Origin: Escherichia coli
GTDB lineage: Bacteria > Pseudomonadota > Gammaproteobacteria > Enterobacterales > Enterobacteriaceae
Assembly (NCBI RefSeq): GCF_003334385.1
Contig: NZ_QOWN01000049.1
DNA: 33,115 bases
Direction: 5' to 3' (one strand)
Made by a program: the position numbers and the translations under genes. Below the pieces are notes generated by a model. That model did no database searches. It worked only from the letters and a program-made list of their open reading frames with translations, and was not told the DNA's origin. How positions within the stretch are numbered: position 1 is the first letter of the stretch; every line of letters starts with the position of its first letter. Shown in pieces: positions 6,452 to 7,171 of this stretch.

Positions 6452-6907
6452 CTACCAGGCTGATGGATGATCATCCTCAATATCAAACACATTTCTGTAA
6501 AAACGAGAATGTTGCAAGGGATGAATAAGCGACCCCCAACAATCATAAATATCAGCCAGTTCGAACACATCGTATGAGAGATGTTGAGCAAACGATTCGG
6601 CACCTTCAAAAGACTCAAACACCTCATCATACAAGTGAATGTTTTCAGGATACGAAAGTGACAAGCAAAAACCAGACGTAGATTCCGTAACCAAGAAGAC
6701 AAGGTGATATTTATCATTCACCAGTGACTGAGCACATTTTTTTACAGAGCGAAGAATCACAGGGGAACGCGCGCCAATACGAAAGAGTTCTGCATGAGCA
6801 CGGGCATCAACAAAACTGTGAAACCCCTCACTTCTTGCAAGCTCACGTTCGGCAGCACGCAAAACCCAAAACCACCGCCCAGATTCGGATGTAAGGATAA
6901 TTTTCAT
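6452..6907 (-). CDS. Hypothetical protein (antisense to early operon, AT-rich)
   Basis: 151-aa ATG-initiated ORF with no internal Met and no competing ORF on the other strand across 6530-6793; no recognisable domain; RBS weak. Confidence 0.45.
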   Translation of the reverse strand: MKIILTSESGRWFWVLRAAERELARSEGFHSFVDARAHAELFRIGARSPVILRSVKKCAQSLVNDKYHLVFLVTESTSGFCLSLSYPENIHLYDEVFESFEGAESFAQHLSYDVFELADIYDCWGSLIHPLQHSRFYRNVFDIEDDHPSAW

Positions 6908-7171
6908 ATGAATAAAGAGAAATCTCCGGATTATTTTGTGAAACGATTACAGGATGCAACAGAGTCAATGTTGATTGCCCTGAATAATTACTCTTACGAA
7001 GAGGCCGTAACGGTACTTGAGTGGATAAAGGAAAAAATAACGGAAGACAGCATCGTCAAGATGCAGAGTATCAACATCTCCCGTGACAAAACATTTCCAC
7101 TGCGAATACCGCCAAAACGACGACTGGTTTACTCGATACCAGTCTCAATGCAGTGCAAATTGCCGAAATAG
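6908..7171 (+). CDS. Hypothetical protein (87 aa)
   Basis: ATG 6908 with aagga RBS about 8 nt upstream; AT-rich; an alternative upstream ATG at 6794 would overlap the minus-strand ORF. Confidence 0.5.
   Translation: MNKEKSPDYFVKRLQDATESMLIALNNYSYEEAVTVLEWIKEKITEDSIVKMQSINISRDKTFPLRIPPKRRLVYSIPVSMQCKLPK

Follow-up and report, generated by a model that had tools for sequence, protein, structure and literature searches.

A divergent gene pair with abutting start codons, one member of predicted YegP fold, forms an accessory cassette in the early region of P2-like prophages

P2-like phages (Peduoviridae) carry morons, or lysogenic-conversion genes, such as old, tin and Z/fun in P2, and divergent genes of bacteria usually require a promoter region between them. 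Here we describe a pair of open reading frames (ORFs), termed ORF-A and ORF-B, in a P2-like prophage of Escherichia coli, based on a stretch of 33,115 nucleotides of contig NZ_QOWN01000049.1 (the window). ORF-A (6452–6907, minus strand) encodes an acidic protein of 151 residues (isoelectric point (pI) 5.4) and ORF-B (6908–7171, plus strand) a basic protein of 87 residues (pI 9.3). Their start codons abut, with 0 nt between them, reading CAT|ATG across both strands at 6905–6910. A first-pass annotation of the window had given these positions, strands, lengths and the CATATG correctly, and its remark that no intergenic promoter space is left holds as well. The junction is invariant in 11 lineages, and we tentatively propose, with a confidence slightly short of even, that the pair is an accessory cassette wired for mutually exclusive, antisense-coupled expression, ORF-A being made in the lysogen and ORF-B in lytic growth.

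Two further kinds of described system are close to this locus. Prophage hotspots for accessory or defence genes have been reported (Rousset et al. 2022, to the extent that the work is cited in 10.1101/2024.09.11.612399), and the excludon concept, developed in Listeria, covers overlapping divergent transcription units (reviewed in PMC7968456).

The prophage is integrated beside dmsA, and a sister prophage at the same dmsA site (L002; loci are designated in this form) is ~98% identical to it through the end of the cox-like gene to 6378 and again from 7366 inside the DUF4761 gene. Pairwise alignment of the two delimits a variable cassette at 6379–7365, with a guanine-plus-cytosine (GC) content of 0.430, where the sister carries ~280 bp with a 64-residue ORF instead of the pair. 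Nowhere else in the prophage is the GC content as low: ORF-A and ORF-B have values of 0.434 and 0.413, respectively, against 0.533 over the prophage portion of the window, and just 0.4% of windows of 720 nt reach a GC content as low as that of the pair, in agreement with the lower GC noted at first pass. Near-identical copies of the locus were found in 6 of 5426 complete E. coli genomes, in which RefSeq/PGAP calls exactly both coding sequences (WP_047645004.1 and WP_001031145.1). Presence or absence between backbone genes, low GC content (0.43 against 0.53) and this rarity support the view, already put forward in the first-pass annotation, that the pair is an inserted, moron-type accessory cassette in the early region of a P2-like prophage.

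Comparative data confirm both genes as real and under purifying selection. When the E. coli copy was compared with one from Salmonella at ~57% protein identity, the ratio of nonsynonymous to synonymous substitution rates (dN/dS) was 0.21 for ORF-A and 0.17 for ORF-B, with dS saturated, and the ORF-A amino terminus, MK(I/F)xL, is conserved from its first codon. The minus-strand frame could still be thought fortuitous, with only the plus-strand gene real and perhaps starting at 6794, as the first-pass annotation had considered; the a priori oddity of the zero spacing and the weak Shine–Dalgarno (SD) motif of ORF-A in the window copy speak in favor of this. Nevertheless, a dN/dS of 0.21 over 151 codons at saturated dS, full-length homologues down to 25% identity and a confident predicted fold are at odds with a chance frame, and the plus-strand extension from 6794 is not conserved, as in 7 of 9 lineages a stop in the same frame precedes the ORF-B ATG by 4–8 codons. 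The comparative data thus refute a fortuitous ORF-A, and we consider it to have next to no chance of being correct.

An exhaustive search of 1.84 billion representative proteins with a hidden Markov model (HMM) yielded only about nine clusters of ORF-A relatives, and ORF-B was equally restricted. All full-length ORF-A homologues with readable context are located in the early region of P2-like prophages, within hosts of the Enterobacterales comprising E. coli, Salmonella enterica, Yersinia enterocolitica, Trabulsiella and Pectobacterium cacticida. Neither protein had a tblastn match among 50,697 phage records. Opposite each such homologue, an ORF-B homologue of 86–97 residues starts at the very next base, and CAT|ATG is unchanged in 11 lineages (L014 and L058 being one lineage) whose ORF-A proteins share 25–57% identity. 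As the abutting starts remained unchanged while the proteins diverged to ~25% identity, the geometry itself is clearly selected, and judged from these sequences the arrangement is not due to chance. Purine-rich SD-like motifs for each gene sit within codons 3–5 of the partner. On the ORF-B side they lie 6–10 nt 5′ of the ATG at every locus compared; in the window, the motif read from the sequence is AAGGA (6893–6897, plus strand), falling in ORF-A codons 4–5.

Likewise, the orientation of the cassette is constant, with ORF-A running in the direction of C and int and against the cox/early operon, and ORF-B running with the early operon. Its place relative to cox is not constant: it follows cox in the window, L004, L014, L017 and L058, and is situated between C and cox in L010, L012 and L056. 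In the window, the prophage backbone to the left of the cassette comprises the integrase gene (4336–5343, minus strand), a helix-turn-helix repressor gene of the P2 C type (5398–5739, minus strand) and a gene for a cox-like regulator of 174 residues (5843–6367, plus strand); to the right of the pair follow DUF4761, DUF4754, a 3′–5′ exonuclease, a ParE-like protein and a Dam methylase, all five encoded on the plus strand.

As the junction offers no promoter space, we infer that both genes are transcribed from outside the pair. The 150-nt gap right of ORF-B houses a leader that folds on the ORF-A strand with a minimum free energy (MFE) of −36.7 kcal/mol (z −2.9). Its first part (7265–7297, minus strand) is an invariant element that contains a 17-bp palindrome, CCATGCCCGGCGCATGG, within a 10-bp hairpin (7268–7297), followed by UUUUGUGG. 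In the MFE fold the second part (7192–7261, minus strand) contains an SD motif, AAGGAG (7192–7197), a closing helix UGUGGU/ACCACA (7256–7261 with 7200–7205) and an inner stem-loop (7212–7251). For this inner stem-loop, folding and inspection of ~30 individual leaders indicated that the stem sequence varies between phages while the pairing is kept; with 19 leaders aligned by MAFFT, RNAalifold retrieved only the invariant hairpin and missed the variable stem-loop. A scan of 5300–7800 against Rfam gave no match, and the leader is not an Rfam family. It could act as a promoter region, an attenuator or an operator.

An exact 24-mer of the first leader part is shared by 33 IMG/VR P2-like contigs, SEN4/SEN5, three Yersinia phages and other E. 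coli prophages, always just upstream of a minus-strand cargo gene; L020–L055 are loci with the leader in this place. In phages with other cargo, the strong SD-ATG of the leader is the start of the cargo gene. At the examined loci with the pair the leader lies directly right of ORF-B wherever that flank is available, and each locus that keeps the SD-ATG opens an ORF of 13–21 codons running antisense into the ORF-B end; L017 has the palindrome element and no SD-ATG. In the window, this upstream ORF has 13 codons, MFSHKLFRQFALH (7145–7186, minus strand; ATG at 7184–7186). On the other side, ORF-A is followed by a GC-rich, terminator-like hairpin and then a U-rich tract, CGGUUUGUUUUG (6383–6423, minus strand; RNAfold −21.2 kcal/mol), which was not listed by a consensus terminator scan and has a sequence homologue in L017. 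GC-rich hairpins 20–110 nt past the ORF-A stop were found at 8 of 9 loci, counting L014 and L058 of the same lineage separately, with none evident in L013; six were flagged by a hairpin-plus-U-tract filter, and those of L010 and L012, with weak U-tracts, were read by eye. Together, the position of the leader and the downstream hairpins outline a putative leftward unit composed of leader, short ORF, antisense ORF-B, ORF-A and hairpin.

We propose that ORF-B would be expressed from the early promoter beside the C repressor gene, on the rightward early lytic transcript, which would first cross ORF-A in antisense. ORF-A would be read leftward, as are C and int, by transcription entering via the structured leader; this unit would span all of ORF-B in antisense as a 5′ untranslated region of ~300–350 nt and end at the GC-rich hairpin past ORF-A. 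Since the start codons abut in every relative found, the mRNA of each gene should be antisense to the other gene, and since the opening codons of each gene contain the ribosome-binding site of the other, any ORF-A mRNA would be complementary to the translation start of ORF-B, and vice versa. Convergent transcription and RNA duplex formation could then allow one product at a time, ORF-A as long as the early promoter is repressed in the lysogen and ORF-B once that promoter fires. An either/or expression switch of this kind, tied to the lysogenic and lytic states, would be the simplest reason for the kept geometry.

The same layout could also serve leftward transcription itself, which would collide with early transcription and, where not terminated, read on to C and int, the proteins being secondary; such a lysis–lysogeny aid would have a parallel in the CII-dependent establishment promoter of phage 186. 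Three observations would fit: ORF-A invariably points the same way as C and int, in antisense to the early operon; in L010, L012 and L056 it sits immediately upstream of C; and the leader is conserved over phages with different cargo. We nonetheless regard this explanation as unlikely, because both proteins are under clear purifying selection, the GC-rich hairpins behind ORF-A in most loci should block read-through, and sister phages manage without the cassette.

The pair is naturally disrupted or rearranged at several loci. In Yersinia enterocolitica, L057 (2621–3300) differs from L010 by a clean internal deletion of 299 bp that takes out most of ORF-A, leaving ORF-B and the junction intact in a prophage otherwise ~99% identical to the full copy, and thus represents a natural ORF-A knockout. 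E. coli STEC316 (NZ_CP041431.1; L020) encodes a remote ORF-A homologue of 155 residues (hhalign 97.3%, E 2.7e-11), located at 1624–2436 directly behind the leader and tail-to-tail, with a 9-nt overlap, with an unrelated plus-strand gene of 117 residues; ORF-B is absent, and this locus is a second architecture for the ORF-A family. Between the Salmonella loci L004 and L013, the ORF-B alleles are 93% identical and the adjoining ORF-A alleles only 44%, so that recombination has swapped one gene with a breakpoint at or near CAT|ATG.

These variants bear on the suggestion, made at first pass, of a toxin/antitoxin-like pair. In a toxin–antitoxin or abortive-infection pair, a basic ORF-B toxin would be neutralised by the acidic ORF-A, or the reverse, and the opposite charges of the two proteins (pI 5.4 and 9.3), their strict co-occurrence and their place in a prophage accessory slot are in line with this; as in type II toxin–antitoxin systems, a mobile element carries two small genes that are inherited together and encode an acidic and a basic protein. 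In contrast to those systems, the genes do not form a bicistronic operon but lie on opposite strands with abutting starts in 11 of 11 lineages, neither matched a toxin, antitoxin or defence HMM, and apparently either gene can be lost alone. ORF-B without ORF-A in L057 and an ORF-A homologue without ORF-B in L020 tend to argue against dependence in either direction. Furthermore, ORF-A is often found truncated, the identities of 93% and 44% show that alleles have been exchanged across the junction, with no allele-specific co-evolution seen, and structure prediction gave no complex, which is a weak negative. The toxin–antitoxin reading is therefore not supported, and we rate it as very improbable.

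For ORF-A, AlphaFold2 with an eight-sequence family alignment resulted in a confident model (predicted local distance difference test (pLDDT) 85, predicted template modelling score (pTM) 0.78) with two β-β-β-α repeats and a C-terminal tail of lower confidence. Outside the ORF-A family, Foldseek matches in AFDB50 were mostly DUF1508/YegP proteins; a Foldseek search of viral structures gave nothing significant. The modelled arrangement of β-β-β-α repeats as a tandem pseudo-dimer is that of the YegP/UPF0339 fold (PF07411; 2K8E, 2K49, 3BID, 6Q2Z). The likeness is one of predicted fold, with sequence similarity below every threshold: the match to Pfam PF07411 (DUF1508) covered residues 8–31 at a non-significant E of 0.31, hhalign of the ORF-A family against YegP (sequence checked against 2K8E) plus SO_3888 gave a non-significant probability of 3.9%, and a PDB sequence search with ORF-A returned no UPF0339 chain. 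Across Pfam, PHROGs, NCBIfam, PADLOC and PDB, the sole significant sequence-family match of ORF-A was phrog_28512, of unknown function. The first-pass statement that neither protein has a recognisable domain is hence correct for sequence searches with Pfam, NCBIfam and PADLOC, but does not extend to the fold of ORF-A.

ORF-A differs from YegP by an extra conserved tail of ~30 residues, HPLQHSRxYRxxFDIxDDHPS, which is the most conserved part of the protein, and by its confinement to P2-like prophages, always head-to-head with ORF-B. The family has a pI of 4.9–6.2 and evolves faster than ORF-B throughout. The fold has been suggested to bind single-stranded nucleic acid. In the literature, tandem DUF1508 domains are likened to the single-strand binders PC4/Whirly and were proposed as sensor domains in Menshen NsnA (PMC12065111), and YegP genes are described behind stress or immune regulators, namely the capK–capS regulators controlling immune operons (PMC13373217). 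The YegP protein itself is uncharacterised in the literature.

The ORF-B family is basic throughout (pI 9.3–10.2). In an AlphaFold model of a linked chain (ORF-A, a 30-residue Gly/Ser linker and ORF-B, with paired alignment rows), ORF-B was predicted to form two helices, residues 7–26 and 30–46, followed by a low-confidence tail that carries the conserved motif D-x-x-F-P-[LV]-R-[IVL]-P-P-[KR]-R-[RK]-[LF]-[VI]-Y. Searches of Pfam, PHROG, NCBIfam, PADLOC and PDB sequences revealed no family match. Weak matches to MatP, YscG/AscG chaperones and DMP12 (E 0.06–2) were taken as noise.

A small, basic and helical ORF-B, more conserved than ORF-A, would suit a regulator–effector pair, in which ORF-B is a DNA- or RNA-binding regulator of ORF-A (or the reverse), the promoters are buried in the coding sequence of the partner, both genes can be on and the layout is merely compact. 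At most loci, promoter-like sites indeed occur inside ORF-A, 150–225 nt 5′ of ORF-B, but they are weak and their positions do not align; ORF-B lacks a match to a helix-turn-helix or other DNA-binding family, and the synonymous sites contain no conserved embedded element. Such a pair would also leave the fixed orientation to the early operon, the leader and the hairpin unexplained. We consider this explanation, too, to be rather unlikely.

Several observations weigh against the antisense-coupled switch that we favor. Promoter scans across loci, by consensus and by position weight, detected no positionally conserved sigma-70 site for either gene, and for the ORF-A unit none that was convincing or conserved in position upstream of the leader or inside ORF-B; the best candidate, an extended −10 TGnTAATTT at 7251–7259, overlaps bases that pair in the predicted leader fold. 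On the opposite strand, folding of the leader is nearly as stable (−34.3 kcal/mol), and per-locus folding energies favor neither strand clearly. In the window, ORF-A has a poor SD motif, GGAG at 16 nt from its start codon, and a synonymous-site scan exhibited no strong embedded element, with a slight rise only at codons 1–15 of ORF-B. Several lineages have a truncated or deleted ORF-A, which is thus dispensable. Lastly, the linked-chain model gave no support for a complex (pTM 0.52, ORF-B pLDDT 45–66, no gain for the ORF-A tail), a weak negative since it used an alignment of only 8 rows and was judged without coordinates.

As to what the switch would control, our guess is that ORF-A acts as a lysogen-expressed nucleic-acid factor that excludes other phages or modulates host or prophage, and that it is replaced by ORF-B at induction. 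Taken to its full extent, this would make the pair a previously undescribed two-gene prophage system, in which an ORF-A of YegP fold, binding single-stranded nucleic acid and present only in the lysogen, blocks phages or keeps the prophage in check until it is silenced by antisense and replaced by ORF-B when the early promoter fires. We think that this full version is improbable; if true, it would amount to a self-immunity switch encoded in gene geometry, provide a first function for the widespread YegP/DUF1508 fold and make the structured leader a general expression platform for P2-like cargo genes.

The leader marks a dedicated cargo slot in the P2-like early region, occupied by diverse minus-strand genes that differ between phages. 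Content between cox and the early genes, which the first-pass annotation had proposed to compare, differs in the sister prophage with its 64-residue ORF; behind the leader, other phages carry ECs1072-family proteins, a 60-residue family and others. The commonest cargo is the 'ECs1072 family phage-associated protein' of 151–155 residues, ending DWDFxPADTRLN (L021 2004–2459, L026, L028, L031, L040, L046 and L049). In a microarray study from 2007, the Sakai gene ECs1072 was among the genes changing expression in uninduced cultures (PMC2241611), hinting that such cargo is transcribed in lysogens. PADLOC 2.0 gave no match for ORF-A, ORF-B or seven of eight other slot proteins scanned, and the remaining one, a cargo protein of 95 residues, matched only weakly to the candidate models PDC-S08 (E 0.005) and PDC-S68 (E 0.05).

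Elsewhere in the window, isrK (11686–11760) and C4 antisense RNA (11796–11883) lie side by side on the plus strand, both matching Rfam above the gathering score; together they make up an RNA-based element of the P1/P7 kind, for immunity or antirepressor control, besides the C repressor. The enterobacterial small RNA STnc130 (4127–4261, plus strand; Rfam match of 124.8 bits) is located between dmsA and the integrase gene, on the AT-rich attachment-site side. In the early operon, an ORF of 75 residues (9087–9314, plus strand) between the exonuclease and Dam methylase genes is annotated by RefSeq as 'ParE family toxin-like protein'; it has no obvious antitoxin partner and recurs in related prophages as Pfam ParE_like.

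Should the either/or switch hold true, the pair would represent a natural, compact device for expressing two genes in mutual exclusion and offer access to two uncharacterised families, one of them with a predicted fold that is widespread and found near immune operons. The cargo slot, with its many unrelated small genes of unknown function, could be mined systematically.

Compared with the morons of P2-like phages, the pair is alike in forming a low-GC, variable cassette that lies among backbone genes, is missing in sister phages and has its own hairpin behind it, and in its orientation against the neighboring operon. It differs in comprising two opposite-strand genes with abutting starts, no slot cargo matches a known defence family, and the early-region site next to cox/C is presumably distinct from the described P2 hotspots. 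With excludons the pair shares divergent genes whose transcripts are expected to overlap, one mRNA being antisense to the other, and an expected either/or expression. Here, in contrast, the overlap, deduced from the spacing and from the position of the leader, would be forced by the abutting starts and cover both ribosome-binding sites, and one of the two genes forms part of the early operon of a phage. The locus thus belongs to known kinds, the prophage moron and the overlapping divergent units, built in this case from two uncharacterised families, one of them with a predicted YegP fold.

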